Below, piece by piece: positions 3,496 to 64,000 of a stretch of 64,000 bases of DNA. This DNA is from Chloroflexota bacterium (GTDB lineage: Bacteria; Chloroflexota; Anaerolineae; JAAYEA01). Both the position numbers and the translations under genes were made by a program. The DNA lies in the NCBI GenBank assembly GCA_036841525.1, contig DAITVZ010000006.1, positions 5,749 through 69,748 of the forward strand. The letters run 5' to 3'. Under the pieces are notes generated by a model. The model worked only from the letters and a program-made list of their open reading frames with translations, had not been told where the DNA came from and made no database searches. Position 1 is the first letter of the stretch; every line of letters starts with the position of its first letter.

Positions 3496-4590
3496 TCACA
3501 ACTCGCGGGTTTCACGGGCGAGCGCGCGCCGCTCGCGGCGATAGATGCGGACCATGGTCCAGACGGCCGCTGCCCCCATCAGCAGGGCCACGTCGCGCCA
3601 CACGCCACGCCAGTCCAGGGGCAGTTGCGTGGAACCTCCGGGCAGCGGCTCCGCCTCGGGGGCGATGTGGGCGCACAGGAAATCGGTGATCGGCATCGAG
3701 TATCCGGAGGCGCTGGACAGCTCACTGAACTCCTGGGCGAGGTGCGCGAGCTCTTGACGAGCACCGTGCGCATGGGAGAGGCCGTGCTGCGCGGCGGGGG
3801 TGCGCAAGCGGCGTCGCGCGACATACACCAGGAGCGGCTCCGGCAGCCAACGGAGGAGCCGGAAAAAGAAGGGTGTGGCCGTGACGCCGGCAGCGCGCAG
3901 CGCGCCCATGCTTTCCCGCAGGCTGCGAGCCAGCATCACCAAGGCGTCGCGAGTATCGGCCAGGCGCGCGACGTCCATGTCGGTCATATAAGTCGCGCCG
4001 GCCAACGGCAGGATAAAGGCGGCATGCGACTTGAGCCAGTCGTCGATGCGGCGCTCGAGCAGCGCCGGGGTGCCCGCCTGCCGAAACAGGGCCATGGCCT
4101 CGGGCAGGCGCGCAGTTGCTTCGGGATACGGCGCGCCGACGATCACCGGAAAGCGGCGCCCCTTCCGCGAGTCCATGAAGCGCACGAGGTTGCCTTCCCG
4201 CGTGCCCGCTGCGCCGGGGAAGCCCATAAGGACGCGCTCGCGGCCCACGGCGGCGGCCAGCGCCTCGGGCCCGGCGGCGTTGTTACCGAGGAACAGGATG
4301 CAGGGAACCAGGTGGTTAGCAGAGAGCGCCGGCAGGATCTCGGCTACGCAATGCTTGGGCACCAGCGTGATGACCAGGTCATAGCGATCCTCGGGGCCCA
4401 ATGCGTCCACCGCGTCGATGGTCATGGTCAGTCGTTCGCCGGTGATCAGGTCTTCCATCTCGAGGCCGCGCTTGCGGAGGTCGGCGAGGCGCTGGCCTCG
4501 CGCCAGCAGCGTCACATCATGGCCGCCTTGCTTGAGCCGCGCCGCATAGAGGCTGCCGATGACGCCCGCGCCGTAGATCAGAACCTTCAT
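3496..4590 (-). CDS. Ketopantoate reductase (PanE/ApbA)-family NAD(P)H oxidoreductase with C-terminal hydrophobic helix
   Basis: MKVLIYGAGVIG Rossmann motif, VTLLARG, FLGNN; strong RBS AGGAAGGAGG before the ATG at 4590. Confidence 0.8.
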   Translation of the reverse strand: MKVLIYGAGVIGSLYAARLKQGGHDVTLLARGQRLADLRKRGLEMEDLITGERLTMTIDAVDALGPEDRYDLVITLVPKHCVAEILPALSANHLVPCILFLGNNAAGPEALAAAVGRERVLMGFPGAAGTREGNLVRFMDSRKGRRFPVIVGAPYPEATARLPEAMALFRQAGTPALLERRIDDWLKSHAAFILPLAGATYMTDMDVARLADTRDALVMLARSLRESMGALRAAGVTATPFFFRLLRWLPEPLLVYVARRRLRTPAAQHGLSHAHGARQELAHLAQEFSELSSASGYSMPITDFLCAHIAPEAEPLPGGSTQLPLDWRGVWRDVALLMGAAAVWTMVRIYRRERRALARETREL

Positions 4591-4833
4591 CTTGACCTCC
4601 TTCCTGAGGCGGATAACCAGTGTGCGCCCGCGGTTCTGACCCAGACCGCAGGGGTGGCCGCCGCTGCGCACTCGCTGGCGCCTCAAGCGGCAGTGTAACA
4701 CGGGTGTCGCGAATCGCCAAGCGCGCGAGCCTGCAGGTTTGGCGATTCGGTGCAAGATGGTATCATGATCGCGGCAGCGCGCCAGCGGGCAAGCGTTGCC
4801 CCGCCCGGGCGAGATTCGGTCAGGAGGTGACGC

Positions 4834-6189
4834 GTGTCGTCATTCTGGAATCACAGATGGCTTTACATCAGCCGCACCGATCTGGATATCGAGTGGAAAC
4901 AGTGCATCGAGGAGGGCAAGGATCCTGCGCCTCTGGCGGCCGAGTTCGCGCGCGTGCGGGCGCTCGATCTGGAGGACCGGCGCAATCAGCCAGCGGCCCA
5001 GACGCTGCTAGACAAGGCCGCGGCGCTGCCCCTGAGGGGCGACTATGGCTACGAGGAGCCGTCGGACCTGGAGGAAATCCGGGCGCGGCGGCCGAAGGGC
5101 GAGCCCTGGCGAGTCCTGCCGGCCAGCGACGAGGGGCTGCTGGACCGTGTGTACGGCGCCTGGCTGGGCCGAGTCTGTGGCTGCTTGTTGGGCAAGCCGG
5201 TGGAAGGCTGGCGGCGCCCGCGGATGTGGGGGTACCTGAAGGACGCGGGGCGCTGGCCGCTGAGCGACTATTTCACGTTGGCGGTGCCCCAGGCGGTGCG
5301 CGAGCGATACGAGCTCTCTCCCGCACGCGCATTCATTGACACCGTTGACCACATGCCCGAAGACGATGATACCAACTATACGGCCACCGGCCTCGCTATC
5401 CTGAGCAAGTACGGGCCAGGTTTTGCGCCCACCGATGTGGCGACCTTCTGGCTGAACAACATCCCGATCCTGCGGACTTGCACGGCAGAGCGCGTCGCCT
5501 ACCGCAACCTCTGCCAACTGATCCCGCCTCCGCGCTCGGCGGTGGTTCGCAACCCCTACCGGGAGTGGATCGGCGCTCAAATCCGCGCGGACATGTTCGG
5601 CTATGCCGCGCCGGGGAACCCTGAACTGGCCGCCGAGTTGGCCTGGCGCGATGCCAGCATCTCGCACGTCAAGAACGGCATCTATGGCGAGATGTGGGTG
5701 GCGGCGATGCTAGCCGCCGCCCTCGTTAGCGATGACGTGTCGCAGATCATCGCGGCGGGGCTGGCCCAGATCCCGGAGCGCTCCCGACTGGCTGAAGCGA
5801 TCCAGGAGGTCCTGGCGTGGCGTGTGGAGGGCATCGACTATGACGCTGCCGCCGAGCGGCTGCATGCGCGCTGGGACGAGAACCACGCGCACGATTGGTG
5901 CCATACCATCAGCAACGCCATGGTGGTGGCGATCGGGCTGCTGTGGGGTGAGAGGGATTACGGGCTGTCCATCTGCCGGGCGGTGCAGGCCTGCTTCGAC
6001 ACGGACTGCAACGGGGCGACGGTGGGCTCCATCGTCGGCGCGATGCTCGGCGCTAAGCGGCTGCCCGAGCGGTGGACTGCGCCGGTGCACGACACGCTAG
6101 AGACGGGAGTTGCCGGGTACCATCGCGTGCGCGTCGCCGACCTGGCGCGCGAGACGATGGGGGTGATCGAGCGGGTCAGAAACGGCTAG
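4834..6189 (+). CDS. ADP-ribosylglycohydrolase family protein
   Basis: GAWLGRVCGCLLG, EDDDTNYT and DTDCNGATVGSIVG metal-binding motifs; AGGAGG RBS. Confidence 0.88.
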   Translation: MSSFWNHRWLYISRTDLDIEWKQCIEEGKDPAPLAAEFARVRALDLEDRRNQPAAQTLLDKAAALPLRGDYGYEEPSDLEEIRARRPKGEPWRVLPASDEGLLDRVYGAWLGRVCGCLLGKPVEGWRRPRMWGYLKDAGRWPLSDYFTLAVPQAVRERYELSPARAFIDTVDHMPEDDDTNYTATGLAILSKYGPGFAPTDVATFWLNNIPILRTCTAERVAYRNLCQLIPPPRSAVVRNPYREWIGAQIRADMFGYAAPGNPELAAELAWRDASISHVKNGIYGEMWVAAMLAAALVSDDVSQIIAAGLAQIPERSRLAEAIQEVLAWRVEGIDYDAAAERLHARWDENHAHDWCHTISNAMVVAIGLLWGERDYGLSICRAVQACFDTDCNGATVGSIVGAMLGAKRLPERWTAPVHDTLETGVAGYHRVRVADLARETMGVIERVRNG

Positions 6190-8699: not shown

Positions 8700-10097
8700 A
8701 TGAAGCGACCGAACATCCTGATCATCCAGACGGATCAGCAACGATGGGATGCTGTGGGGGCTAACGGCAACGAGGAAGTCATCACGCCGAACCTGGATCG
8801 GCTGGCCGCGCAGGGCGCGACCTTTTTGCACCACTATGTGCAGAACCCCGTCTGCATGCCCAGCCGTGCCAGCTTTCTCCTGGGGCAGTACCCCTCCACC
8901 GTCGGCAGCCTGAAGAACGGCTCGCCGGTCCCGGAGGATGCGATCACCTTGCCGCGGATTCTGCGCAACTATGGCTACGTGAGCGGGAACGTGGGCAAGA
9001 TCCACTTTTTGCCGCACGCCAACCGCGATCACCGGCAGATACACCCCGACTATGGCTTTGACCATATGGAGATATCGGACGAGCCGGGCTGCTATGAGGA
9101 CGTATATCGCGCCTGGGTGCGCCGCAAGGCGCCCGATCAACTGCCTTACATCAGCCGGGTGCTTCCGCCGGCGGCGCAGGTCTACCGAGACGAGGTGGGG
9201 CCGCTGGAGGATTTCCCACACCCGGCCAAAGGCGCACCCGGCTATGGCATCGAAACCGCGGTGCGCAAGGACGTGACGCAGGCCGCCTTTGTGGCGGAGC
9301 AGACGATGGAATTCGTGCGCCAGCGCCGCGAGGGGCCGTTCCTCTGCATCGCCGGGATCTATGCGCCGCATAGCCCTTGCCTGGCGCCGCAAGAGTACCG
9401 CGACCTCTATGACCCTGGGCGGCTGAGCTTGCCCCAGTTTCCGCCAGAGGTCGAGGCCCGGCGCGCGGGCTCCACCTATACGGACGCCGAGCTGCGCGGC
9501 GCCAAGCATGGGTACTATGCCATGGTTAGCGAGGTGGATGCGCAGGTGGGGCGCATGCTGGCCTATCTGGACGAGCTGGGCATAGCCGACGAGACCATCG
9601 TGGTCTTTACCTCGGACCACGGGGAGTGGCTGGGCGAGCACCTTCGGTACGGGAAGGGCTACCCAGGCCACGACTGCGTCAGCCGAACCCCGCTCATCGT
9701 CCGCTGGCCGGGCGTGGTTGCGGAGGGCCGCCGGGTGGAAGCGGTGGTGGAGGCGATCGATGTGTTGCCCACCCTGTTGGCGGCGGCAGCGATCCCCACG
9801 CCGCCGCACCTGCAGGGCCGTTCGTTCCTCGACCTGCTGGAGGGACGCGCGCAGGAGGGCCGCGACTCGGCGCTGACGGAGGGCGATGGCTGGAAGAGCT
9901 TGCGGCTGCCTGGATTGCGCTACGTGGTGGAGGCCAGCGGCAAGGAGAGCCTGTTCGATCTGAGGCATGACCCGGGTGGCTACCAGAACCTGGCCGGCGA
10001 AGCGGAATACGCCGAGGCGCTCCACGACGCCCGGCTGCGGCTGTTGCAGCGCCTGTTGCAGATGGAGCGGTCGCTGCCGCGCACCTGGACCTATTAA
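8700..10097 (+). CDS. Sulfatase (Cys-type)
   Basis: RPNILIIQTDQQR, CMPSRASFLLG, GKIH, SDHGE. Confidence 0.92.
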   Translation: MKRPNILIIQTDQQRWDAVGANGNEEVITPNLDRLAAQGATFLHHYVQNPVCMPSRASFLLGQYPSTVGSLKNGSPVPEDAITLPRILRNYGYVSGNVGKIHFLPHANRDHRQIHPDYGFDHMEISDEPGCYEDVYRAWVRRKAPDQLPYISRVLPPAAQVYRDEVGPLEDFPHPAKGAPGYGIETAVRKDVTQAAFVAEQTMEFVRQRREGPFLCIAGIYAPHSPCLAPQEYRDLYDPGRLSLPQFPPEVEARRAGSTYTDAELRGAKHGYYAMVSEVDAQVGRMLAYLDELGIADETIVVFTSDHGEWLGEHLRYGKGYPGHDCVSRTPLIVRWPGVVAEGRRVEAVVEAIDVLPTLLAAAAIPTPPHLQGRSFLDLLEGRAQEGRDSALTEGDGWKSLRLPGLRYVVEASGKESLFDLRHDPGGYQNLAGEAEYAEALHDARLRLLQRLLQMERSLPRTWTY

Positions 10098-10115
10098 CCT
10101 GGAGGAGAACCACCT

Positions 10116-11255
10116 ATGGATGTCTATCGCGAACTGGGCGTCGAGCCGCTGATCAACGCGGGGGGAACGCTGACCACGCTGGGCGGGTCGCTGATGCTGC
10201 CCGAGGTGACGGATGCTATGGCGGCGGCCAGCCGAGCCTTTGTGGACATGAGCGAGCTCCACCTGGCGGCGGGGAAGCGGATCGCTGAGCTGGTCGGCGT
10301 GGAGGCGGCGCACGTCACCTCAGGCGCCGCGGCGGGGATCGCCCTGATGGCGGCGGCTTGCATGACCGGGGCGGATGGCGAAAGGATCGCCCGCCTGCCG
10401 GATACGACTGGAATGAGAAACATGTTTGTCATCCAGCGGCCACACCACAACCCATTCGACCAGGCGCTGCGGCTGACGGGAGCCAGCTTTGTGGACGTGG
10501 CAGCCGATGAGGATGAACTGGCGAGCGCTCTGCGCCGGCCGGACGCCGCGGGAGTCTATTCCACTTTCGCTTGGTTCTGCCGGCTGCCGGTGCTGCCGCT
10601 GCCGAGGGTGGCGGAGCTGGCCCATGCGGCGGGATTGCCGCTGATCGTGGACGCCGCCGCGGAGGTGCCACCGCTGGAGAACCTGGCGCGCTTTGTGCGC
10701 GAGGGCGCCGATTTGGTGGCGTTCAGCGGGGGCAAGGCGATCCGCGGGCCGCAGTCCACCGGCTTTGTGCTGGGGCGAGCCGATCTGGTGGAGGCCTGCC
10801 GCCTCAACGACAGCCCGAACATGGCGATCGGACGCCCGATGAAGGCGGGTAAAGAGGAGATCGTCGCGGTGGTCAAGGCGGTGGAGCTGTATACGCGCAA
10901 GAACCACGCTACCGAGATGGCCGTCTGGGAGAGGCGGGTGGCGCACGTGATCGGTGAGCTGGCCGCGCTGCCGCATGTGCGGGCGTGGCGGCAATTGCCC
11001 TTTGGCACCGGGCAACTGATCCCGCACGCGGCGGTGAGCTGGGACGAGGGCAAGGTGGGGCTGACCCATGAAGAGGCGCTGCGTCGCCTGAAGGAGGGCC
11101 GTCCGCGGGTCGCCGTGCAACTGGTTAGCCCGCAGCGCTACGCCTTTTCGGATTTTACGGCGCCGGAGCTGCGGATTCACCCGCACACCCTGGCGGACGG
11201 AGAAGAGATGGTGGTGGCGCGGAGGCTGGTCGAGGTGCTTTCCGGCAAGCGATAG
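10116..11255 (+). CDS. SelA-like PLP-dependent enzyme (DgaE/D-glucosaminate-6-phosphate ammonia-lyase-like)
   Basis: INAGGTLTTLGGS, VTSGAAAGI, IVDAAAE, FSGGKAIRGPQ (PLP lysine), GRPMKAGKEEI. Confidence 0.82.
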   Translation: MDVYRELGVEPLINAGGTLTTLGGSLMLPEVTDAMAAASRAFVDMSELHLAAGKRIAELVGVEAAHVTSGAAAGIALMAAACMTGADGERIARLPDTTGMRNMFVIQRPHHNPFDQALRLTGASFVDVAADEDELASALRRPDAAGVYSTFAWFCRLPVLPLPRVAELAHAAGLPLIVDAAAEVPPLENLARFVREGADLVAFSGGKAIRGPQSTGFVLGRADLVEACRLNDSPNMAIGRPMKAGKEEIVAVVKAVELYTRKNHATEMAVWERRVAHVIGELAALPHVRAWRQLPFGTGQLIPHAAVSWDEGKVGLTHEEALRRLKEGRPRVAVQLVSPQRYAFSDFTAPELRIHPHTLADGEEMVVARRLVEVLSGKR

Positions 11256-52887: not shown

Positions 52888-53757
52888 TTACGCTTTGATA
52901 TACTTGCCGATGAGAGGCGCCAGGTCGCGCTTCACGCGCTGAGGGATGACATCGCGGTTCGTGATCATGGCAGTGGCCAGCGCGGAGCCGCAATCACACT
53001 CGCGAGCAGCGGGGATCATGGACACCAGAACCTCGATGGCTCGCTTGGTCACAGCCGCATTGGCTGTCAGGTTCCCGATGAGCATGTCGACGCTCACGGG
53101 TTCTTCCGTCTCATGCCATACATCATAGTCGGTCACATGGGCCATGCAGGCATAGCAGATCTCGGCCTCCCGCGCCAGCTTGGCCTCTGGAATAGCGGTC
53201 ATGCCAATGATATCGACGCCCCATTGCCGGTAGATGCGTGATTCAGCTTTGGTCGAGAACTGCGGACCATCGATCACGATGAAGGTGCCGCCTCGATGCA
53301 CGGTGGCCCCGGTCTGTTGAACCGCCTCGTAGAGCAGGTGGCTGAGCTCGGGGCAGAACGGCTCCGCCATCCCGATGTGTACGACCAGGCCATCGCCAAA
53401 GAACGAGTTGGCTCGAGCCTTGGTACGGTCAAACAACTGGTCAGGAATCACAATGTCGCGGGGAGCGTAATCGGCGCGCATGCTGCCGCACGCGCTCACC
53501 GAGATTATCCGCTCGACTCCCAGCGTCTTGAGCGCATAGATGTTGGCGCGCGAGTTCAACTCATGTGGCATGATGCGGTGACCCCGTCCGTGCCGAGGCA
53601 GGAAGGCGATGCGGCGGCCCTGCAGGGTCCCAACGATGATCGCGTCGCTGGGATCGCCAAACGGAGTCTTGACTCGCACCTCCGAGACGTCAGTTAGCGC
53701 CTCCATCTCGTAGATGCCGCTGCCCCCGATTACGCCGATGCTGACTTGCTCTTGCAT
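52888..53757 (-). CDS. mtnP: S-methyl-5'-thioadenosine phosphorylase
   Basis: IGVIGGSG, FLPRHGRGH, SACGS, DGPQFST, IGMT, VTDYD. Confidence 0.95.
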   Translation of the reverse strand: MQEQVSIGVIGGSGIYEMEALTDVSEVRVKTPFGDPSDAIIVGTLQGRRIAFLPRHGRGHRIMPHELNSRANIYALKTLGVERIISVSACGSMRADYAPRDIVIPDQLFDRTKARANSFFGDGLVVHIGMAEPFCPELSHLLYEAVQQTGATVHRGGTFIVIDGPQFSTKAESRIYRQWGVDIIGMTAIPEAKLAREAEICYACMAHVTDYDVWHETEEPVSVDMLIGNLTANAAVTKRAIEVLVSMIPAARECDCGSALATAMITNRDVIPQRVKRDLAPLIGKYIKA

Positions 53758-53778
53758 ATCCACTATCCTCTCTATAGC

Positions 53779-56700
53779 CTAGTTCGCGCCAATGGCCTGC
53801 AGTCGCTCCGCAGCGCGATCTTCCCAGTCAGTGCCAACGCCGATCTGCATGGCCTGGGTATAGGCCCTGCGCGCGCCGGTGCGGTCCCCCTGACTCTCCA
53901 GGGCTGTACCCAGATGGAAGAAGGACTCGGCGAACCCCGGATCGGCCTGGGTTGCCCGCTCAAAAGCTTGTGCTGCCTCGCCCCAGTGCTGCCGCTCCAG
54001 GTAGGCCATCCCCAGCTTGTTGAGCGCGGCGGGGTTATCAGGGGCCACCGCCACCGCCCTGGCATACTGGGCCAGGGCTTGTTCGAGATCGCCCATCAGA
54101 GCGTATGTATCGCCCAAGGTGTGATACATGGCAACGTCCTCGGGGTGCAGCTCGAGCGACGCCTCGAAAACGCGCGCAGCATCCTCTGGTCGCCCCAACT
54201 GACGGTAGCGATCGCCCAGCTCGAACTGCAGGCCGGCATTTCCCGGGTCAGCCTTGGCGGCGCGCTCCAGGGTCTTGAGCGCATCCCTGCTGATGCTGCT
54301 CTCTGCCCTCGGCGCCACCGTCGGGATGGCAACGGCTTGGGCTGCACCGGACACGTAACCGGCGAACTCGCGCCTGACCTGATCGAGCACGCGATAGATG
54401 CGGACGGTATCCTCATCGTAGACCAGCGCCAGGTACTCGCTCATCGCATCGAACTTGGCGAGGCTGGCCTCAGAGTAGACCGATCTTTCGAATGGCCCCA
54501 CGTACACATAGGAGACGCCGTACTTGGCCAGGAGGCGCGCCGTTTCCTCCGCGTCCATCGAGCGGTACATCTGCTCTGCGTCGCGGTGGCGGGGCCCGAT
54601 CAGCTCGTCGTAGCGCTGTTCGTTTTCGTGCAGCGGGTTGAGCACAGTGGGCAAGCCGGTGTTCACGGCGATCCGCACACCATTCTCGCGATAGTAGCCG
54701 TAAGGGGCCTGCAGAATGATCGGCGTGCCCTCGAGGTTATCGATCAACCACTTGATGGCCTTCAGATCGGGCTCCAGGTAGATCTGGTGCCCATCCCAAT
54801 TGTACGTTGCGGTCTCCATGTAGGCCAGCCCATCGAGGGTGCCCCAAGCAGGCGGGGCCGGGAATCGGTCACGCCAGCGACTCTGAATCGCCACCAGTGG
54901 ATAGGCCGCCGCCAAGAGCAGCAAGCCGCCCAGGATCACCTTCCATATGGCGCCCAAGGCATGTCGCCGCACCCACCAGGACCGAAGCAGAACGCCAAGA
55001 CAGGCCGCCGCCGAGAGGGCAAGAAGCACCCAGGCCTGGATATAGAACTTGAAGATCGTGTTCATCCGATACCAAGTATCACCCAGGTGGTCCCGGATAT
55101 AGATGACTTCCACGCCAATGGAGATCAGCAGGCCAGCCAGGCCGAGCCATAGCGCGAATCGCTCCGGCAGGATAAGGTCGGCGCGCCCCATGGCCGCCAG
55201 CGATAGCAGGATAAGCTCCGCGATGCTCCAGAGCGTCAGCAACTGCCGCCAGTTGACATCAGGATACAGAAGCTGTGCTATGCCAAGAAGCAGCGGGAGC
55301 AGCGCCAGGCTCACAAGAAACACCCACTTGCTGGACAGCCAGGCCAGCAGGCGCGACCTGGCCGTGGCCTCTGGGGCCTTGGCCGGCGCCGCCGCAACAG
55401 CAGCAGAAGGCACCTCGTCGCCGAGCAATAGGCTGGGGACAGGCTCGGCCAAGGCCAGCACGTCCGGCACTTCCGCAGCCAGCGCGTCCAGGTCGAGGAC
55501 CAGCGGGCTCGGTGTGGCGTCCGGCAGCGGAGCATCCCGAGGACCGTCCTCGGCGCTTGTGGAAGCCACCGAAACCTCTGCCGAGAAGCTGCGAGCGGTG
55601 GCCCTCCGCCCGGCGACGCGCCAGACGACATAGGTAGCCAGGACAAACAGGAACAGGCCAAAGAAGGACCAGTAGTAATTGAACTCGGTGGGATAGCGAA
55701 CGAGTCCTATCCCCTTGATGAAGGCCTGGAAGTGGGTGAAGAAGGGGAAGAACAGCGCCAGGCCAAGGCCTGCCAATGCCAGGGCGCCAACGGTGGCGGC
55801 CAGGATCGTCCTCACCTTCCGTCGCCACCCAGCGGGCTGATCATCACCATCGCGAGGGGCGTGCGCCAGCAGCAGCGCCCCAAACGCCACCAGCGCGAAC
55901 GCCGGGAAATCCCACGAGTTCGTGACAGCCAGCGTGCCGAGCACCAAAGCCGCCAAGAAGCCGACCAACCACGGCGCCGCCCGGAGACGTTCCTGGGTAT
56001 GGCCCTCGGTCTCTGTTACCTGGCGAACCCCCTGGGCGATGCGCAGGGCAAGGGCGATGGACAGGATGGTGAACGGGATATTGATGGTATGCGGGTGAAG
56101 ATCCGCGAACAAAAAGCTCCAGAAGGGGAATTCGGTGATGGTGTTCTCATAGAATCCATGGGACCGAGAGGCGTCCCAAAACCAGTCGGTGCGCAGGGGC
56201 AGAGTGGCAGGCCCGAGCCATCTCCAGAAGCCTTGCCAGAGCCGAGCCAAGGCGCCGGACGTGTCCGGGTCCGCCAGCTGCTGGAGCGCCGACACGACCT
56301 CGCCAAAGCCGCCACGTCCGCGGACCGGGAACGCTCCGCTGAGAGGGCCCACCCAGACCACCAAGAAGCCAGCCACGACGCCAAAGAGCTTGCGGCCGGT
56401 CAGCGTAGCCACAACAGAAAAGCATCCTGACACGGTGAGGGCGAACAGGGTAGCAATGATCAGGTTGAAGGCGACTCCTGGCATAAGCCCGGACAGCTTG
56501 ACCAGGGTAGACACTGCGAATAGCCCATAGTAGTAATAGTTGATGTATCCGCCGGAGAAGAAGGGGTCAAGAGGCGGCATGGTGGAGCTGCGGAGAATGG
56601 CATTTAGGAAGCCAAACTCCATGGGCTTTTCTCCGCCGTTCACCGGGTGCCAGATATCCGGATTGCCAAGCCGCAGCAACAACCCTGCCGCGAAGGCGGC

Positions 56701-59106
56701 TAGAAAGACCAGCTCGAAGGCCAGCAGTCGGCGATGCTCCCGCCAGAAAGCTGTCACGCTGAGCCGCCGCTTGCGCAGTAGCAGATAGGAAAGGAATGCA
56801 ACTGCGGCGATCGCTCCCCACACGGCCCAGACGGTGTAGTTCCAGAGTCCCAGGCTCACCGGCATCCAGACGAGGTAGGAAACCAGCACCAGGCCAAGGG
56901 CCTTGGTGAGCAGATAGCCCCTATCAAGGAAGGTTGAAAAGACAGCGCTCGTCACCGGCCAGGCTACTAAGGAGACAAGGGCCAGGCCGAGAAGCCAGAC
57001 CACGATTGCGAGCGGGGTGCTCGAGCTGGCTACGCGGTTCCAGCCATAGTCAGAGACGGCTGGCAGGGCTTCCACTGGCACGTCCAGCATCAGTGGCTTC
57101 TGATATTGGGGCACGGGCAACACCACTGGCGCATCGGACCCCATGCGTGTGACCGCAGGCGCGGCGTTGAGGACATCGCCAAAGAGCCCGCGGATCTCCT
57201 GCTCGGGCAAGTCGCGGACCTTCTGGTAGATGAGCACCTTGGGATGATCATAGACGCTGAAACTCTCGTCGGCGGCATCGTCCACGAACGTCAGTCCCCA
57301 GATGGAAGGGTAGGACATGGCCGTGTGCGCGAGCTCGAAGCCCAGACGCTCGGTGAAGAGCAGCTCATAGTACTTGAGCTCCACGGGGTACCGCCAGGGC
57401 AGCCGCCGGATGGCCCCATACAGCCGCGGGGTAGCCAGCACGATATAGTCGGATCGCTGCATGGTCTGAATCAGATGCTGAAGCTTGGCCTCTGGGGCCA
57501 TGTCGTGATAGATGTCAAAGGTCACGTTGCCGGCCAGCCTGGACCGATTGAACCCTTCGAGGGCCAGGTCCACCGGCAGGGCGTCATCCCAAGCTTCCGC
57601 GCTCACCGTGGAGCCACGCGGGGCATTGGCGTATAGCCACCGAGAAGCGTCGTGCCAGGTGTGCGGCTTGGCATAGATGCTCATGAAAGCCAGCGCCCAG
57701 ACCAGCGTCGGGAGCAGGATGGCCACTACCGTGAGGGTGCTCACCACCCGCGAGAACCGCTCCGCTACGCTCGGGCTCACTTGCCGATCGGCCGTCAGGT
57801 GCGCCTGGACCCAGGGACGTGCCGCCAGATCGCGCCCCCAGCGGCCAAGGAGCCTCGCGACGCCGAGCACCAGCCAGGCCCCCAGGACGCACAGCGCTGG
57901 GACCAGCGGCAGCATGTACCGCATGAACTTGACCTCGTACCGGCCCACCACGGCCAAGTAGGGGAGTACCCAGCCAAGGAGCACCGCCATGCCACGCAGC
58001 CGATCGTCATAATACAGGGCGTGCATGGCGCGATGCCACCAGTTAAGGCCGCCTGCGCCACGCGGCCGAAGGAGTGTCCATACGATCAAAGCAGCTGCCG
58101 CTATCACGCCCGCAAAGGCAGCGATTCCCAGCGGCCAGCCCAGCCCCCAGCGCCCGAGGTTGCCCAGGTGGTACAGGTAGGGAAGGGTGTTGATATACTG
58201 GCGGGTGAATGGCCAGTCGTTCGCGCCGCTGACCATCTCGGATTGGTTCGCGAGGGCGGCGAGATACGTCTGGGGGTCAAGGAAGACATAGAACTCAAAG
58301 ACACCGTAGATCAACAGGGCGCCCAAGAGAACCAGAAAGACATAGCGGAGCCCGTGCAGCCAGGGTCGGCGCACCCTCTTGGCGGCGGGACCCAGGGCCC
58401 AGAGCAGCAGGGAGACGACAACCGCTGCAAGGGTGGTTGCTCCGCTGACCTTGCAGGCCATAGCCCCGCCCAGCGACAGCCCGAGGAGAAGCGCGTTGCG
58501 CCAACCGCCGCGGCGCGCCAAGCGCAGCCCCCAGCACAGGGCGCCGGTGGCGAACATGGCCAAGGCCAGATCAACGGTCATAAAGTGGCTGAGCTGTATG
58601 TGCGTGACGCTGAAAGCCAGGAAGGCGGCGCCAAGCAATCCCGCGCCGGGGCCAAAGAGCGCCGCGCCGATGGCGTATGCCAGCACAACCGTGATCAGGG
58701 CAAAGACAACCGTCACGGCGCGCCCGACGACAAAGTAACCATCGTAGGTGTCGAACTGTGGGTAGCCAAGCCAGCGCAGCGCCGCAGTCGTGGCGCGGTA
58801 GATGTAGATCGGGAGGGTGCCGTACGCGAGGTCGTAATGACCGCCGTCGGCCGGATTGATGCGACGAGGGTTCAGCGTGCTGACGTCGGGGTCGGCCAGG
58901 TTGCGCCAGTCGGGCGGCCAGGGCAGGGAGATGCGTCCCATCGTATTGGCCAGGTGGCGCTCGTCGGGATGGGGATATGCCCCGAAGTCGGCGTCCCACC
59001 CCAGGCCATAGATGCGCAGGGCGCCAGCGCACAGCAGGATGATCGCCAATGCCACAAACGCCAGGTTGCGGCGCCAAGTTGGGCCCAGTCGGTCTTGCAG
59101 CGACAC
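53779..59106 (-). CDS. Large membrane protein: GT39-like N-terminal module + DUF2298/Chlor_Arch_YYY domain + TPR repeats
   Basis: HPDERH GT-C motif; GGEKPMEFG, DPFFSGGYINYYYYG, TITEFPFWSFLFADLHPH, LDGLAYM; C-terminal TPR helices; GTG start with GGAGG RBS. Confidence 0.88.
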   Translation of the reverse strand: MSLQDRLGPTWRRNLAFVALAIILLCAGALRIYGLGWDADFGAYPHPDERHLANTMGRISLPWPPDWRNLADPDVSTLNPRRINPADGGHYDLAYGTLPIYIYRATTAALRWLGYPQFDTYDGYFVVGRAVTVVFALITVVLAYAIGAALFGPGAGLLGAAFLAFSVTHIQLSHFMTVDLALAMFATGALCWGLRLARRGGWRNALLLGLSLGGAMACKVSGATTLAAVVVSLLLWALGPAAKRVRRPWLHGLRYVFLVLLGALLIYGVFEFYVFLDPQTYLAALANQSEMVSGANDWPFTRQYINTLPYLYHLGNLGRWGLGWPLGIAAFAGVIAAAALIVWTLLRPRGAGGLNWWHRAMHALYYDDRLRGMAVLLGWVLPYLAVVGRYEVKFMRYMLPLVPALCVLGAWLVLGVARLLGRWGRDLAARPWVQAHLTADRQVSPSVAERFSRVVSTLTVVAILLPTLVWALAFMSIYAKPHTWHDASRWLYANAPRGSTVSAEAWDDALPVDLALEGFNRSRLAGNVTFDIYHDMAPEAKLQHLIQTMQRSDYIVLATPRLYGAIRRLPWRYPVELKYYELLFTERLGFELAHTAMSYPSIWGLTFVDDAADESFSVYDHPKVLIYQKVRDLPEQEIRGLFGDVLNAAPAVTRMGSDAPVVLPVPQYQKPLMLDVPVEALPAVSDYGWNRVASSSTPLAIVVWLLGLALVSLVAWPVTSAVFSTFLDRGYLLTKALGLVLVSYLVWMPVSLGLWNYTVWAVWGAIAAVAFLSYLLLRKRRLSVTAFWREHRRLLAFELVFLAAFAAGLLLRLGNPDIWHPVNGGEKPMEFGFLNAILRSSTMPPLDPFFSGGYINYYYYGLFAVSTLVKLSGLMPGVAFNLIIATLFALTVSGCFSVVATLTGRKLFGVVAGFLVVWVGPLSGAFPVRGRGGFGEVVSALQQLADPDTSGALARLWQGFWRWLGPATLPLRTDWFWDASRSHGFYENTITEFPFWSFLFADLHPHTINIPFTILSIALALRIAQGVRQVTETEGHTQERLRAAPWLVGFLAALVLGTLAVTNSWDFPAFALVAFGALLLAHAPRDGDDQPAGWRRKVRTILAATVGALALAGLGLALFFPFFTHFQAFIKGIGLVRYPTEFNYYWSFFGLFLFVLATYVVWRVAGRRATARSFSAEVSVASTSAEDGPRDAPLPDATPSPLVLDLDALAAEVPDVLALAEPVPSLLLGDEVPSAAVAAAPAKAPEATARSRLLAWLSSKWVFLVSLALLPLLLGIAQLLYPDVNWRQLLTLWSIAELILLSLAAMGRADLILPERFALWLGLAGLLISIGVEVIYIRDHLGDTWYRMNTIFKFYIQAWVLLALSAAACLGVLLRSWWVRRHALGAIWKVILGGLLLLAAAYPLVAIQSRWRDRFPAPPAWGTLDGLAYMETATYNWDGHQIYLEPDLKAIKWLIDNLEGTPIILQAPYGYYRENGVRIAVNTGLPTVLNPLHENEQRYDELIGPRHRDAEQMYRSMDAEETARLLAKYGVSYVYVGPFERSVYSEASLAKFDAMSEYLALVYDEDTVRIYRVLDQVRREFAGYVSGAAQAVAIPTVAPRAESSISRDALKTLERAAKADPGNAGLQFELGDRYRQLGRPEDAARVFEASLELHPEDVAMYHTLGDTYALMGDLEQALAQYARAVAVAPDNPAALNKLGMAYLERQHWGEAAQAFERATQADPGFAESFFHLGTALESQGDRTGARRAYTQAMQIGVGTDWEDRAAERLQAIGAN

Positions 59107-59141
59107 GGAGCAACCTCCAGCGGCCATAGTGCAACAGGGCT

Positions 59142-59169
59142 ATTGTAGCGGAATCCCGGGGCAGGTCAA
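59142..59169 (-). promoter_or_regulatory. Putative sigma70 promoter of the YYY gene
   Basis: TTGACC-16 bp-TACAAT. Confidence 0.45.
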
Positions 59170-59206
59170 AAAGCAAAGAGCCCACTGGCGACCCAGCAGG
59201 CCCTTT
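59167..59206 (-). terminator. Intrinsic terminator of ssrA
   Basis: 14-bp stem (with G-U pairs) AAAGGGCCTGCTGG-GTCG-CCAGTGGGCTCTTT followed by GCTTTTT. Confidence 0.8.
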
Positions 59207-59219
59207 ACTTTACATAACA

Positions 59220-59663
59220 TGGAGATGGCGGGAATCGAACCCGCGTCCAAAGAGTTCGCCCGCAAGCTTCTACAAGCTTAGCTGGTCTGTTGTTTCTCGC
59301 CCAACGACCACCCGTCCAGCAAGGATGTCATTAGGCCAGCCGATGATCTTGAGCCTCCTTATCGACATGGGGAAGCAGCACCCCGACTTTTATTACGCCC
59401 AGGGCTTGTCCCATCGGGGTGGGGGCAAGGTGGACGTGACCGCGGTTAGGCGGTCAGGGCCAGGAATGCGCTAGGACCGCTTACGCAGCGCCGGCTGGGG
59501 ATGCGCAAGGCACCCCTGCCCAAGGCTGCTTAGGCAGCCATCGCGTATTCGTAGGCCGGGAGTTTGGCTGTTTTGCCAGTTATTGTTTGCCCCATTTTAC
59601 GAGAGCGAGGCGCCTCGGCTTGCAGCTCACGGACAGCCGTCCCTGTCGAAACCTGTCATCCCC
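59220..59663 (-). ncRNA. ssrA: tmRNA (444 nt); tag GKTAKLPAYEYAMAA* at 59577-59530; CCA not encoded
   Basis: 5' GGGGATG pairs with 3' CATCTCC-A, including the G3-U wobble; T-arm GCGGG-TTCGATT-CCCGC; UAACU before the resume codon; GGCTGC-CTAA-GCAGCC stop hairpin; pk1-pk4 pairings traceable; directly downstream of smpB. Confidence 0.96.
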
Positions 59664-59731
59664 TGGATCAAGATCCGACTGGCAATCCAAACCCCACCAT
59701 ATCAACATCCCAAGGTGCATGGAACACCCAT

Positions 59732-59760
59732 ACTGTACCACAGATCACGTCGCGCGTCAA
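59732..59760 (-). promoter_or_regulatory. Putative sigma70 promoter of ssrA
   Basis: TTGACG-17 bp-TACAGT with TGn. Confidence 0.6.
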
Positions 59761-59778
59761 GTACCGCCAAGGACGCGA

Positions 59779-60243
59779 TCAGTAATCCTGCTCTTTCAGC
59801 GCGCGCTGGATGGAACGGTCCGCTTCCTTCTGCGCCAGCGCCTCTCGCTTGTCATAGAGTTTCTTGCCGCGAACCACGGCGATCTCCACCTTGGCCAGGT
59901 TGTTGAGCAAGTACATCCGCAACGGGACAATGGTGATGCCCTTCTCCTTGACCTGACTGTGCAGGCGCAGGATCTCTCGTCGATGCAGCAAGAGCTTGCG
60001 ATCCTGGCGCGGGTCGTGGTTGGCGCGGTTCCCCTGGTCATAGGGCGCGATGTGCACGTTGACCATCCAGGCCTCGCCGTTGCGGAAGGTGACATAGCCA
60101 TCCTTGAGGTTGACGCGGCCGGCGCGAACCGACTTGATCTCCGTCCCGGTCAGCACCAAGCCGGCCTCGAGCTTGTCATCCACGAAATAGTCGTGATAGG
60201 CTTTGCGGTTTACCGCGACGTCTCTTACCTTGTCGTCTTTCAT
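59779..60243 (-). CDS. smpB: SsrA-binding protein
   Basis: NRKAYHDY, EAGLVLTGTEIKS, RKLLLHRREI, RGKKLYDKRE. Confidence 0.98.
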   Translation of the reverse strand: MKDDKVRDVAVNRKAYHDYFVDDKLEAGLVLTGTEIKSVRAGRVNLKDGYVTFRNGEAWMVNVHIAPYDQGNRANHDPRQDRKLLLHRREILRLHSQVKEKGITIVPLRMYLLNNLAKVEIAVVRGKKLYDKREALAQKEADRSIQRALKEQDY

Positions 60244-61481
60244 CGCGCCTGCTTCTCAAGGAGATACTCGATCGCGCGCTGCAGTTGCGCGTCCTGGTCA
60301 GAGAGCACGGCGGAGGGATCCATCTCGACCAGGATGTCCGGCTCCAATCCCTCGCCATCGATCCCACGGCCATTCGGCGTGTACCAGCGCGCGATGGTCA
60401 GCACCAAAGAGGAGCCATCGCTCAGAGCGTAGGGTATCTGCATAGACCCTTTGCCGAAGGTGGTCGAGCCAATCAGCGTCCCACGCTGGCGATCCTGGAC
60501 AGCCCCCGCCACGATCTCGGAGGCGCTAGCGCTGCCCTCGTTTACCAGGACCACCAGCGGGATCTCGGTGGCGATCCCGCCGCCCCGTGCGGTATACTCG
60601 ACGCCCTCATCGCCCAGGCTCTTTCGCTCTATCAGCACGAGCCCCCGATCCAGGAACTCGCTGGCGATATCCACCGCCGCCGAGAGCAAGCCTCCTGGGT
60701 TGTTCCGCAGGTCGAGGATCAGGCCAGTTGGGCGCTGCTTTATCAGATCGGCGAGCGCCTCGTGCACCTGATCGCTCGCCTGGGCGTTGAACTCGTTGAG
60801 CCGCAGGTATCCCGGCCCCTCCGGCAAGACCCTGTACTCCACCGTGGCAAAGTCGAGCTTGGCGCGCACGATGGTGACCTCGAACTCGCTCGCCTCGTCC
60901 TCGGCCAGCCGCCGGACAAGCAGGCGAACAGAGGTACCCTCAGGGCCGCGGATCAGCGCCACCGCCTGGAGCACGCCGAGCCCCTCGAGCGGGCGGCCGT
61001 CCGCCTCCAAGATAATGTCGCCAGCGCGGATTCCGGCTTGCTCCGCGGGGCTGTTCGGCAGCGGCGCCACCACGGTCAAGAAGCCATCGACATTGTTCAC
61101 CGACGCGCCAATGCCCTCAAAACTGCCGCTGAGGTCCTCTTCCAGGACAGCGGCCGCTGCTGGGTCGACCCAAACCGTATGGTCGTCGCCCAGGGAGTCC
61201 ACCGTGCCACGGATCGCCCCGTAGATCATCTCTTGCTGATCGAGCGGCGCCTCGGTGTAAAAGCTCTCCTCGATGCGGTGCCAGGCCTCCCAGTACACGC
61301 GGAAGCTCTGCTCGAGCTCCTCGGAGACCTCCCCAACGGGGTACTGGACATCCGGGCGGCTGAACCAGGATACGCCATAACCCGCCAGAAAGGTGCCCGT
61401 CAGGAGCGCACCCGACAGTGTCGCCATCGCCAGCAGCCGAAGTAGTGGCTGCGCCTTCTGGTCTCCACTCTTGTTCGTCAT
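60240..61481 (-). CDS. ctpA: S41 carboxyl-terminal processing protease (PDZ), membrane-anchored
   Basis: FEGIG PDZ, DLRNNPGG, ASASEI, TFGKG; ATGA overlaps on both sides. Confidence 0.92.
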   Translation of the reverse strand: MTNKSGDQKAQPLLRLLAMATLSGALLTGTFLAGYGVSWFSRPDVQYPVGEVSEELEQSFRVYWEAWHRIEESFYTEAPLDQQEMIYGAIRGTVDSLGDDHTVWVDPAAAAVLEEDLSGSFEGIGASVNNVDGFLTVVAPLPNSPAEQAGIRAGDIILEADGRPLEGLGVLQAVALIRGPEGTSVRLLVRRLAEDEASEFEVTIVRAKLDFATVEYRVLPEGPGYLRLNEFNAQASDQVHEALADLIKQRPTGLILDLRNNPGGLLSAAVDIASEFLDRGLVLIERKSLGDEGVEYTARGGGIATEIPLVVLVNEGSASASEIVAGAVQDRQRGTLIGSTTFGKGSMQIPYALSDGSSLVLTIARWYTPNGRGIDGEGLEPDILVEMDPSAVLSDQDAQLQRAIEYLLEKQAR

Positions 61482-62809
61482 CTGTCACCCTCGGATTGCT
61501 CGGCCAGATACTGCAACGCCCGATCCAACTGCGGGTCGTTCCCTGCCTGCATGTCTTCCGTTGTCCGCGGCACCAGGATGTCCGGATCAAGCCCCAGGCC
61601 ATTGATCGGTCGCCGGTGCGGCGTCAGCCAGTGGGCGGCGGTCACGTGCAGGCTCGAGCCATCGCTGAGCTCGTGAACGTATTGCATGGAACCCTTGCCA
61701 TAGGTCTTTTCGCCGATTAGGACGCCCCGCGCATAGTCCTGGATCGCGCCGGCGACAATCTCGGCCGCGCTGGCGGTTCCCTCATCCACGAGGACCACCA
61801 AGCGCCCCTCGGCGTACGACGTAGCCGCGTCGGGAATCATATAGGCTTGCTCAACCAACTCGCCGTCCTCCCCGCGTCGCCTTTCGTAGAGCAGCACGCC
61901 CTCCGGGAGCAGCTTGCTGGCCACCTCACCGGAGGCGCTCAGCAAGCCGCCACGGTTCCCTCGCAAGTCCAGGACAATCTCCGAAATCCCCTGCTCGCGA
62001 ATCTCGGCCAGGGCGCCAGCCAGCTCGTCACCCGTGGGCTCGGCAAAGAAAGTCAGCTGCACGTAACCAACCTGGCCATCCTGCAAGGGTTCCCAGGTGA
62101 CCGTGATCTGCTTGATCTCGGCGCGAACCACTGGCACGAGTAGCAGGTCCTCCTGGTCCTGGCGCTGGATGCCAAGGGTCACCGTGGTCCCCACGGGCCC
62201 GCGAATGAGCAACACCACCTCGTCCTGTGACAGGCCATCCACCGCGACGCCGTCCACCTGCGCGATGATGTCTCCGGCGCGCAGGCCTGCCCCTTCCGCC
62301 GGCTGGCCCGGCATGATCGCCGAGATGAACGGCTGTCCTTCCTCGGTCATGCCGACATAGGCGCCGATGCCGCCAAAGCTGCCCTCGTATCCGCTCTTGT
62401 CTAGCTCGGCCTGGGGCGGCTCGACAAAAGAGGTGTGTGGATCACCCAGCGTGCCGACAAGCCCGCGAATGGCGCCATAGGCGGCCGCCTGGTAATCCAG
62501 GGCCTGCTCGGAGTAGAAATCGCGCTGGATCAGCTCCCATGCCTCGGAAAAGGGCTGCAAGCGCGAGCCCGGAGTTGCCTGTTCATCGGCGGCGCCACTC
62601 TCCGCTTGCGCGGAAGCGTCACCTCGCGCGGGATCCGCAGCCTGTGCATCGGGCGGTGGGGTAGGGGGGCGCACTTCGCTCACCCCAGGGGCAGATGGGC
62701 GAAGCGATCTCCCGTACCAACCGATTCCCAAGCCTGCAAGAAACGATGCGCCGCTCAAGCACAGGGCGCCAAACACCGCCGCAACAAGCCAAACAGACGA
62801 TTTCCGCAT
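61478..62809 (-). CDS. ctpA: S41 carboxyl-terminal processing protease (PDZ), membrane-anchored, second paralogue
   Basis: FGGIG PDZ, DLRGNRGG, ASAAEI, TYGKG; N-terminal TM plus Pro/Ala linker. Confidence 0.92.
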   Translation of the reverse strand: MRKSSVWLVAAVFGALCLSGASFLAGLGIGWYGRSLRPSAPGVSEVRPPTPPPDAQAADPARGDASAQAESGAADEQATPGSRLQPFSEAWELIQRDFYSEQALDYQAAAYGAIRGLVGTLGDPHTSFVEPPQAELDKSGYEGSFGGIGAYVGMTEEGQPFISAIMPGQPAEGAGLRAGDIIAQVDGVAVDGLSQDEVVLLIRGPVGTTVTLGIQRQDQEDLLLVPVVRAEIKQITVTWEPLQDGQVGYVQLTFFAEPTGDELAGALAEIREQGISEIVLDLRGNRGGLLSASGEVASKLLPEGVLLYERRRGEDGELVEQAYMIPDAATSYAEGRLVVLVDEGTASAAEIVAGAIQDYARGVLIGEKTYGKGSMQYVHELSDGSSLHVTAAHWLTPHRRPINGLGLDPDILVPRTTEDMQAGNDPQLDRALQYLAEQSEGDR

Positions 62810-63150
62810 GAGAGAGGGCCTTCCGCTTATGTTAAACGATTGCCGATTATTGACATAATCGCTAGGCATGTTAACTATTGCTATTCTAGCACATATCGGG
62901 GACAGAACCAAAAGCCTGCGCCTCCGGCCAGGGCCGGTCACATCCCAGTGGCCGAGGTGGAGCACAGGACGGCCAGGCCGTGCTCCGAACAGGGTCACCA
63001 CAACGAATCGAGACGGGTGTGCGCGAGCCAACCAAGGAGCGATGCGTCGACTGCGCGCGCGGGTTCGGCCAGTCACATGCTCGGTGCTACGTGGGCTTGA
63101 GCACGCGGCCACAAGACAACCAGCGATCGGAGAAGCCTGTTTGGGGGGGC

Positions 63151-63179
63151 TTGACACCCGGACAAGGTTATGGTATAAT
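63151..63179 (+). promoter_or_regulatory. Perfect-consensus sigma70 promoter of the recombinase gene
   Basis: TTGACA (63151-63156), 17 bp, TATAAT (63174-63179), with TGn extension. Confidence 0.85.
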
Positions 63180-63212
63180 ACTTCGCATAATGTCACTTAT
63201 ACGAAGTATTAT
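63175..63212. other. dif/loxP-like recombination site (16-bp arms, 6-bp core)
   Basis: ATAATACTTCGCATAA-TGTCAC-TTATACGAAGTATTAT; the arms are 15/16 complementary; lies 45 bp upstream of a tyrosine recombinase. Confidence 0.8.
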
Positions 63213-63257
63213 CTGCGCGAACACCCTGATCTCCGCCCCACTCACAAGGAGCGCCTG

Positions 63258-64000
63258 ATGACCATCGATGAGGCCATGCAAGCATTTGCTGATCATATCC
63301 GTGCGGCGCAGTCAGAGGGCACGGCCCGAACCTATGCGACGGGCGTCAGCCACCTGCGAGCCTACCTGCTGGAGCAAGGACTACCCGCCGAGAGCACCCC
63401 CGTCGACCGCCTCGATCTTCCTATCGCCACCGGCTTTGTCACCTGGCTCTACGAGTACCTCCTTGTAGAGACCGCCGACGGCGACCCGGAGCAGATCTCG
63501 CAGCCGACCAAGGCAACCTATCTGGCGGCCATCTCGCGCTTCTTCGAGTATCTCATCGTCGAGTCGCAGGCGCTAGCGATGTCGCTTGATGATTATGACA
63601 AGTTGCGAAAGGCCATCGCGCGGGCCAGCAAGGTCCATGCACGTCAGCAACTGCCGCCGGACAAGCTGCCCTCGCACCAGATCGTGGAGGCGCTTCTCGC
63701 TGAGGTGAGGATGCCGCCTCCCTTGCCGGAAGGGACGCCCCCCGGGGAGCAGCGCCGCCGGCAGTTGGCGCACTTGCGCGACGTGGCCATCATCGAGTCC
63801 CTGCTCAGTTCGGGGATGCGCGTCTCCGAGTTGGTTCGGCTCCGCAGAGGCAATCTGTTGCACGACGATCGCGGCGCGCTGCTCAAGCACACCAAGGGGA
63901 ACCGGGAGCGCGAGATCCTCTTTTCCGACGCGGCCTGGGAGGCCATCTGGGCCTATCTCGCCGAGCGCCAGGACGGCGCGCAGGTTCGCGCGCTGGCTGA
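63258..64000 (+). CDS. Tyrosine recombinase (Xer-like), 3' partial
   Basis: Translated by hand (absent from the ORF track). AAGGAG RBS; MTIDEAMQAF..TARTYATGVSHLRAYL..TKATYLAAISRFFEYL core-binding domain; RDVAIIESLLSSGMRVSEL (box I Arg); TKGNRERE (catalytic Lys loop); no stop before the window end. Confidence 0.9.
   Translation, partial: MTIDEAMQAFADHIRAAQSEGTARTYATGVSHLRAYLLEQGLPAESTPVDRLDLPIATGFVTWLYEYLLVETADGDPEQISQPTKATYLAAISRFFEYLIVESQALAMSLDDYDKLRKAIARASKVHARQQLPPDKLPSHQIVEALLAEVRMPPPLPEGTPPGEQRRRQLAHLRDVAIIESLLSSGMRVSELVRLRRGNLLHDDRGALLKHTKGNREREILFSDAAWEAIWAYLAERQDGAQVRALA

Follow-up and report, generated by a model that had tools for sequence, protein, structure and literature searches.

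A promoter-embedded palindrome as the probable core site of a Xer-like tyrosine recombinase in Chloroflexota

We analyzed a 64-kb stretch of DNA from a Chloroflexota bacterium (contig DAITVZ010000006.1; hereafter, the window), which was extended to 74 kb by metagenome contig L001 continuing past the window end. Near this end, an almost perfect palindrome overlaps the promoter of a gene for a Xer-like tyrosine recombinase, and we conclude, with a probability of roughly 0.85, that the recombinase encoded next to it uses this palindrome as its cognate core site. That the two together resolve chromosome dimers, with autorepression of the recombinase, is the function that we favor with more reserve. 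In the proposed mechanism, a single protein species would bind both 11-14-nt arms, two sites would synapse in a homotetramer, and strand exchange would occur at the edges of a 6-bp central region, so that dimers would be resolved close to the replication terminus, as in XerS/difSL, XerH/difH, and XerA/dif. The site, its pattern of conservation, its linkage to gene and promoter, the catalytic residues, the chromosomal synteny, and the skew switch are observations, whereas binding, catalysis, the homotetramer, dimer resolution, and autorepression are inferred. Every refuting condition from the original prediction that sequence analysis could address turned out in its favor. A previously undescribed one-enzyme system is most likely, and the module apparently represents an undescribed lineage of single-recombinase Xer/dif systems.

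The palindrome, its promoter and its conservation

The palindrome, ATAATACTTCGCATAA-TGTCAC-TTATACGAAGTATTAT, spans positions 63175-63212 and consists of 16-nt arms with a single mismatch (94% complementary) around a 6-nt spacer. Within it, on the plus strand, we distinguish a left arm, AATACTTCGCATAA (63177-63190; core 11-mer ACTTCGCATAA, 63180-63190), a central, putative crossover region, TGTCAC (63191-63196), and a right arm, TTATACGAAGTATT (63197-63210), which is one transition short of perfect symmetry (family consensus, TTATGCGAAGTAAA). The overlapping promoter comprises a -35 hexamer TTGACA (63151-63156), a 17-nt spacer, and a TATAAT box (63174-63179) preceded by TG at 63171-63172, and it reached 12 of 12 matches plus the TG in a promoter scan. 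The last five nucleotides of the extended -10 element TGgTATAAT (63171-63179) thus form the outer end of the left 16-nt arm. A ribosome-binding site, AAGGAG (63246-63251, read from the sequence), precedes the ATG of the recombinase gene at 63258, leaving 45 nt between the end of the palindrome and the start codon. The original prediction had described this palindrome with one arm mismatch and a 6-bp core, the perfect TTGACA-17-TATAAT promoter overlapping it, and its 45-bp distance to the recombinase gene, and all of these proved correct in coordinates and sequences.

The palindrome is A+T-rich and conspicuous in a genome of about 65% G+C. When half-sites were sought with up to three mismatches, just the two palindrome arms were found in 64 kb (0.02 expected by chance), and scanning the window and the next 10 kb with a weight matrix revealed no further copy of the site. 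The 34-mer at 63177-63210 agrees with loxP at 25 of 34 positions (21 of 26 in the arms), as had been predicted, with 4 of 8 in the spacer, and the runner-up 34-mer in the window reached 19 of 34. The site is also identical to Escherichia coli dif at 18 of 28 positions, with its inner arm CGCATAA matching the XerC side of dif.

To assess conservation, we used 31 genome loci from GTDB species representatives, about 29 of them usable, and added metagenome loci. Of the approximately 29 usable genome loci, 17 had the site, ACTTCG[C/T][A/C]TAA-N6-TTATGCGAAGT(AAA), no more than 3 kb from the gene. Most of these sites lie 11-282 bp upstream; one is 2 kb upstream and two are immediately downstream, and their orientation relative to the gene was always alike. 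It also lay upstream of the gene in four of four additional long-contig loci. A metagenome search seeded with the site returned 19 loci, of which nine, all high in G+C, had an orthologue 118-222 bp downstream (1992 bp in L068). Another locus, L062, initially seemed to have a site but no gene; there the site stands at the contig end, directly before ctp-ctp-smpB, which is its usual position. Overall, about 60% of orthologue loci bear the site, so that the palindrome reported from a single sequence is conserved beside most orthologues.

Among 27 unique sites, information content reached 2 bits in the arms (at the CTTCG and TAA positions) and was 0.2-0.8 bits at the central six positions. The spacing was exactly 6 bp in every site found, giving an 11-6-11 geometry that can be extended to 14-6-14 and that conforms to Xer/dif core sites in general, in which inverted arms of about 11 bp enclose a central region of 6-8 bp. 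Conserved arms, a variable spacer, and constant spacing together are the signature expected of a tyrosine-recombinase core site. A mild asymmetry is seen in many sites, which read CGTCTAA toward the promoter and CGCATAA (reverse complement) toward the gene and so recall the functional asymmetry known for difSL and difH.

Comparison with the closest relative, L086 (84% protein identity), sharpens this picture. The intergenic region of about 450 bp is essentially unalignable between the two apart from a few identical islands, which comprise the -35 hexamer, a block of 20 nt (TGGTATAATACTTCGCATAA) containing the extended -10 element and the left arm, the inner right arm TTATACGAA, the ribosome-binding site, and the promoter of the divergent ctp gene. 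The spacer reads TGTCAC in the window and GGTAGA in L086, with two of six positions identical. Between ctp and the recombinase promoter, the window has a long G+C-rich intergenic stretch of about 340 nt (62811-63150), which is not conserved in this closest relative and includes an imperfect 28-nt direct repeat (62916-62943 and 63051-63078; 71% identity).

Two further observations concern the upstream regions of the orthologues. In one Anaerolineales subclade (L017, L019, L020, L022-L024, L026, and L030), the recombinase gene follows two genes resembling those for 2-oxoacid:ferredoxin oxidoreductase (POR) almost without a gap, in an operon-like arrangement; most members have no nearby site, which there must lie elsewhere or differ. 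Separately, a direct-repeat motif, T[TA]ATGT[CA][GA]A, occurs 26-67 nt upstream of the recombinase ATG in five loci (L008 at about 173-213, in three copies; L011 at about 158; L007 at about 2953; L010 at about 2973; and L014 at about 791). It is about 30-fold enriched relative to the rest of the loci and is absent from the window.

The outer sequence, ACTTCG/CGAAGT, is common to the two arms. Neither arm is of the XerD type, as the original prediction had noted when it proposed the site as the enzyme's own target. In diverged loci, moreover, the two arms change together. The site of L007 reads GGTTCG/CGAACC, both arms being altered symmetrically, and the same holds for three palindromes from phage loci: AGCTTCGTACAA-N6-TTGTACGAAGCT in L083 (ACAA/TTGT), ACTTCGTCAAA-N6-TTTGACGAGAT in L084 (CAAA/TTTG), and ATGACGGCAAA-N6-TTTGCCGCTAT in L085 (GGCAAA/TTTGCC). 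The shared outer arms and these joint changes would fit a single protein binding both arms and lend weight to the own-target proposal. Because the recombinase gene with its promoter is the sole component common to the diverged loci, the recombinase is the most economical candidate for this protein.

A rival reading takes the palindrome not as a protein-binding site but as a hairpin of nucleic acid, in the form of a stem-loop in the 5' untranslated region or of a cruciform. In favor of it, 84% of arm cells are pairable across the alignment and a few pairs have changed on both sides, but a protein binding both arms would produce such symmetric changes just as well. Pair 11/24 has a conserved C-T mismatch, seen in 15 of 21 sites. 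The predicted transcription start lies inside the left arm, so that the mRNA would be missing most of the 5' half of the stem, and the fold of the 5' untranslated region was no better than that of shuffled sequence (z = 0.63). We give the hairpin almost no credence. An RNA element at the site was rejected on the same fold statistic, the mismatch, the start inside the stem, and the absence of any Rfam family match at the site.

The overlap between site and promoter is itself conserved. At least 12 diverged orthologue loci have a TTGAC[A/G]-17-TAnnnT promoter, often with an upstream TG, that points toward the recombinase gene; a TTGAC[A/G]-like -35 hexamer stands at an unchanged distance from the site in at least 12 orthologue loci and in three phage loci. 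Since these promoters end 0-3 nt before the left arm, the predicted start falls inside that arm. With the site beginning within the -10 box and covering the predicted start, recombinase bound there should repress its own promoter. The conservation of this arrangement supports a putative operator role for the bound recombinase, in agreement with the autorepression suggested in the original prediction.

Such an overlap would also be expected if the palindrome were a transcriptional operator only, bound by the recombinase as a repressor or by an unrelated dimeric regulator, with no recombination taking place. We regard this as improbable for several reasons. The catalytic residues of the recombinase are all strictly conserved, and 11-nt arms ending in TAA/TTA with exactly 6 bp of free spacer between them reproduce the core geometry of dif and lox. 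In L009/L068, L020, and L021, the sites lie either 2 kb upstream of the gene or on its downstream side, where they have no promoter and yet are fully conserved. An unrelated regulator is further disfavored by the recombinase gene being the only component shared by the chromosomal and phage loci.

The recombinase and its phage-borne relatives

The window holds the 5' 743 nt of the recombinase gene on the plus strand (63258-64000), encoding residues 1-247 of 346, and the gene would end about 298 nt past the window. We obtained the complete protein, P0001 (346 amino acids), from contig L001, which overlaps the window from 62484 onward with one mismatch in 1517 nt and extends 10.3 kb beyond it; P0001 differs from the window open reading frame by one amino acid substitution. 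The window open reading frame was identified as a tyrosine recombinase by the Pfam family Phage_integrase (PF00589, 7.9e-10). It encodes just R188 and K213 of the catalytic set, and the remainder, including the HxxR motif and the tyrosine that the original prediction had expected in the rest of the gene, was found in P0001 (H293xxR296, H319, and Y328). All six residues are invariant in 27 orthologues.

We compared P0001 with the curated NCBIfam models, and each score lay below the respective cutoff: 123.2 bits for XerA (NF040815, cutoff 220), 114.7 for XerD (TIGR02225, 329.6), 112.4 for XerC (TIGR02224, 335), and 81.8 for XerS (NF003462, 267). Searching the PDB with a family profile gave archaeal XerA as the best match (5hxy, 4e-23), with 4a8e and XerD also recovered; XerH (5jjv) was matched over a short C-terminal stretch only (2.4e-9), and no Cre chain was found at E<=1e-3. 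The AlphaFold model of P0001 (predicted local distance difference test score, 84) has a two-domain architecture of core-binding and catalytic domains (CB and CAT) that matches the folds of XerA, IntI, XerD, and Cre. XerA was the top Foldseek match; Cre appeared from rank 18 down at 12-15% identity, after XerA, IntI4, the Tn1549 integrase, and XerD. The N-terminal domain is about 165 residues long and contains an extra segment at about 125-165 that is partly of low confidence in the model.

Among 83 close homologues, those with a named source came from Anaerolineae, Caldilineae, Thermoflexales, or unclassified Chloroflexota. Taken with the XerA and XerD scores, the empty Cre result in the PDB profile search, and the low Foldseek rank of Cre, these comparisons place the enzyme in the Xer superfamily and not with Cre-type recombinases, as a member of a Chloroflexota clade of its own that is closest to XerA and XerD by sequence and predicted structure. 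The system had been put forward as a candidate of either the Xer/dif or the Cre/lox type; the Xer-type alternative stands, and a Cre-type enzyme is not supported. Within the 74 kb, no second tyrosine recombinase was found.

Beyond the chromosomal clade, the most closely related proteins (51-58% identity) are encoded in three phage gene clusters, all of which have the same promoter-palindrome-gene layout. In L083, the module (gene at 10001-11035, site at about 9956-9983) sits in opposite orientation within a tail cluster, between the tape-measure and distal tail genes. In L084 (4648-5706, site at about 4588-4615), it is located beside SNF2-helicase, PAPS-reductase-like, ParB-like, and structural genes, and in L085 (1062-2111) beside a tail-fibre-like gene. 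In a neighbor-joining tree, these phage proteins were sister and outgroup to a single chromosomal clade.

The half-site is more widespread than the clade. The core TTCGNNTAA-N6-TTATRCGAAGT was found in 23 IMG/VR contigs. In prophage-like contigs of low G+C content (0.32-0.36; L038, L039, L044, L051-L054, and L056), TTTCGCATAA-N6-TTATGCGAAGT lies about 90-500 bp from a gene for a 297-residue XerD-like protein (for example, in L052, site at 4360-4385 and gene at 4473-5366). This low-G+C module follows a site-then-gene order in a Firmicutes-type background, and the sequence TATGTCAAAC after its right arm resembles a XerD-type arm. P1-like lox variants, ATAACTTCG[C/T]ATAATGTGTGTTATACGAAGTTAT, with loxP arms and another spacer, were found in two viral contigs of G+C content 0.49 (L050, 1596-1623; L059, 2095-2122), and no Cre-like open reading frame was seen in the 3.5 kb inspected of L059. 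The likeness of the Chloroflexota site to loxP is thus real, and by these sequence comparisons it belongs to a half-site that serves several recombinase lineages of distant relationship. Because the half-site is common to P1-like lox variants and prophage modules, this likeness is no sign of kinship with Cre.

These relatives raise the question of whether the chromosomal module is a resident phage-derived Cre/lox-like cassette with a role other than dimer resolution, serving related phages or plasmid-prophages as a target for attachment or recombination, or persisting as a domesticated remnant for another recombination task. The sister clade resides in phage clusters (tape measure, tail tube, tail-fibre-like, SNF2 helicase, and ParB-like genes) with an identical layout, and the half-site is common to P1-like lox variants and low-G+C prophage modules. 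In addition, the module of site and gene is inverted in place between the same neighbors in different genomes. Nevertheless, the chromosomal proteins form one clade apart from the phage proteins, and the single site copy in 74 kb leaves the gene unflanked, in contrast to an integrated element. The site also adjoins a switch in GC skew, and the gene sits among housekeeping neighbors of conserved synteny, as described below. Among the rival readings, the phage-derived cassette is the foremost; we consider it unlikely as an account of present function, although it deserves real weight, and we retain dimer resolution by the recombinase at its own site as the preferred role.

Genomic setting and GC skew

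The gene neighborhood of the recombinase is of a housekeeping kind. On the upstream side, the minus strand of the window carries a gene for a 1782-residue multi-pass membrane protein with a C-terminal TPR region (53779-59127), whose orthologue-side counterpart is annotated PMT_2/DUF2298 and which belongs to the conserved neighborhood, the transfer-messenger RNA (tmRNA) gene ssrA (59217-59663; Rfam, 174 bits; tag peptide AVTSTLPPPRWDKPWA), smpB adjoining it (59779-60243), and two genes for S41 (Ctp) peptidases. Downstream of the recombinase are POR genes and a mannose-type phosphotransferase system. In many orthologues of 60-85% identity, smpB, ctp, hflX, and POR flank the gene in various combinations, and there are no phage genes within 74 kb. 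These housekeeping neighbors and their synteny among orthologues indicate that the recombinase gene is a vertically inherited chromosomal gene.

Relative to ctp-smpB, the site and the recombinase gene occur in three arrangements (L033, L037, L020/L021, and window 59779-64000). The site lies between divergently oriented recombinase and ctp genes in one; in another, it precedes a recombinase gene that reads toward a ctp gene of the same orientation; and in the third, it lies between recombinase and ctp genes that both read in the same direction. Such differences imply local inversions around the site, in which the module or the gene alone was flipped between the same neighbors, and recombination at the site may have caused them. 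A separate difference was seen between two near-identical contigs at mutS, which in L034 (2570-6343) contains an intein with a LAGLIDADG endonuclease and in L033 (2409-6343) is represented by a MutS_V fragment and an unrelated minus-strand open reading frame.

Inversion switches are often operated by tyrosine recombinases whose inverted-repeat sites lie beside the gene, and the tmRNA gene, a common target of islands, is 3.5 kb away. The site could accordingly be one end of an invertible or excisable segment, either a phase-variation switch or a mobile-element boundary. We find this highly improbable: neither a second copy nor a half-copy occurs in 63 kb of upstream and 11 kb of downstream sequence, and synteny is kept across orthologues of 60-85% identity. 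The position of the recombinase also differs from that expected at an island boundary, since it lies on the 5' side of ssrA, with smpB and two ctp genes in between, and not at the ssrA 3' end. An island integrated at ssrA was rejected on this geometry.

The proposed role in dimer resolution draws further on replication polarity. The leading strand is G-rich, and a change from positive to negative skew has the polarity of a terminus. A switch of this polarity is located at about 53000-60000, with the cumulative G-C maximum at 59589, within the tmRNA gene and 3.6 kb from the site. In 2-kb bins, skew was positive in 28 of 30 bins up to 60 kb (strongly so only to about 53 kb) and negative in seven of seven bins from 60 to 74 kb. 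Mean (G-C)/bp came to about +0.05 for positions 1-53 kb and to about -0.015 for the remainder, and a two-segment division fitted best with its change point at 53 kb. Using approximate gene calls, we found skews of +0.088 for plus-strand and +0.039 for minus-strand genes to the left of the switch, and of -0.029 and -0.064, respectively, to its right. Because the sign is the same for both gene strands on each side, the switch is not an artefact of gene orientation.

Several points weigh against dimer resolution by a recombinase acting on this site. In about 40% of orthologue loci, no site is seen at distances of up to 3 kb (in 13 loci, a relaxed weight-matrix scan over this range returned nothing above 18 bits), and adjacency is therefore frequent, not obligatory. 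A 44%-identical relative near rpmH-rnpA is likewise without a palindrome. The nearest non-chromosomal relatives are phage-borne, which makes a phage-derived function other than dimer resolution possible, and binding and catalysis at the site are themselves predictions from sequence. The skew evidence comes from one 74-kb stretch that reaches 14 kb past the switch, and stretches of 7, 20, and 21 kb from relatives gave mixed and noisy signs, with L073 confounded by convergent genes. Of the terminus location that the original prediction set as a check, the positive-to-negative switch 3.6 kb from the site is in favor, whereas the relatives' short stretches are divided.

Significance and comparison with known systems

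To our knowledge, XerS, XerH, and XerA represent the three lineages in which single-recombinase Xer systems are known. Another, independent one in Chloroflexota would widen the picture of how dimer resolution is solved, and the existence of its sister clade in phages is relevant to the question of whether modules of this kind arose from mobile elements. Tentatively, and as a scenario that may well be wrong, we suggest that in this clade a phage-derived, Cre/lox-like module of a single gene took the place of classical XerCD or was added to it, with its lox-like site in the recombinase promoter, such that one protein resolves dimers, sets its own level, and possibly docks related phages. The natural series of co-varying pairs of site and enzyme (inner arms ATAA, ACAA, CAAA, and GCAAA) provides material for studies of specificity, with loxP-like arms recognized, as we propose, by an unrelated protein. 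If the enzymes act without host factors, they would be candidate orthogonal recombination tools. For Xer specialists, the system is no surprise in kind, yet it is a clean lineage with testable autoregulation and a connection to phages.

No described Xer/dif or lox-like system of Chloroflexota or Anaerolineae was found in the searchable literature, most subscription journals being outside its coverage. A broad survey of dif sites predicted them, among Chloroflexi, for Dehalococcoides only (PMC3025954), and a study on the discovery of Cre-type recombinases mentioned neither Xer nor Chloroflexi (PMC10250229).

By site sequence, the closest known counterparts are loxP and dif. The Chloroflexota enzyme has the catalytic domain of XerC/XerD and its site has the geometry of dif, and the location near the skew switch would be a further likeness. 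In contrast, its scores against the XerC and XerD models are 112-115 bits relative to cutoffs of 330-335, and its site is linked to the gene. The outer sequence common to both arms and the lack of a XerD-type arm imply one protein, unlike in XerC/XerD. The Cre/loxP system of phage P1 and the Cre-type systems Dre, Vika, Nigri, and Panto (PMC10250229) also combine a palindromic site near the gene with one recombinase, and the phage-borne sister clade is a further parallel. The 34-bp loxP has inverted arms of 13 bp and cleavage points 6 bp apart, and 21 of 26 arm positions are alike, but the resemblance is one of the site only: the Chloroflexota protein is not Cre-type, and its gene is a chromosomal copy in a housekeeping context.

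XerH/difH of epsilon-proteobacteria (PMC3325230) has one recombinase and a palindromic site with a 6-bp center, although its arm sequences are unrelated to those of the Chloroflexota site. Archaeal XerA/dif, likewise with a single recombinase, a dif-like site, and a 6-bp center, is the closest by protein sequence and fold; the Chloroflexota protein differs in its bacterial host, its longer N-terminal domain, and its score of 123.2 bits relative to the cutoff of 220.

The functionally closest analogue is XerS/difSL, which resembles the Chloroflexota module in having a single recombinase, a site directly upstream of the gene, and both together as one module, which lies in the terminus region in XerS/difSL and putatively so in Chloroflexota. 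As in XerS-type modules, the site stands upstream of the gene, at 45 nt in the window and at 11-282 bp in most site-bearing orthologues. The two differ in phylum, and the Chloroflexota protein is not XerS (81.8 bits relative to 267). Whereas difSL is an atypical 31-bp site with weak likeness to dif, the Chloroflexota site is a near-perfect 11-6-11 palindrome that resembles both dif and loxP. For difSL, which lies directly upstream of xerS, the authors of its description suggested that the site mediates autoregulation, with no promoter mapped (PMC1914069). In the Chloroflexota module, the overlap with a strong promoter is visible and conserved, making autoregulation, a speculation for XerS, testable by a simple reporter.

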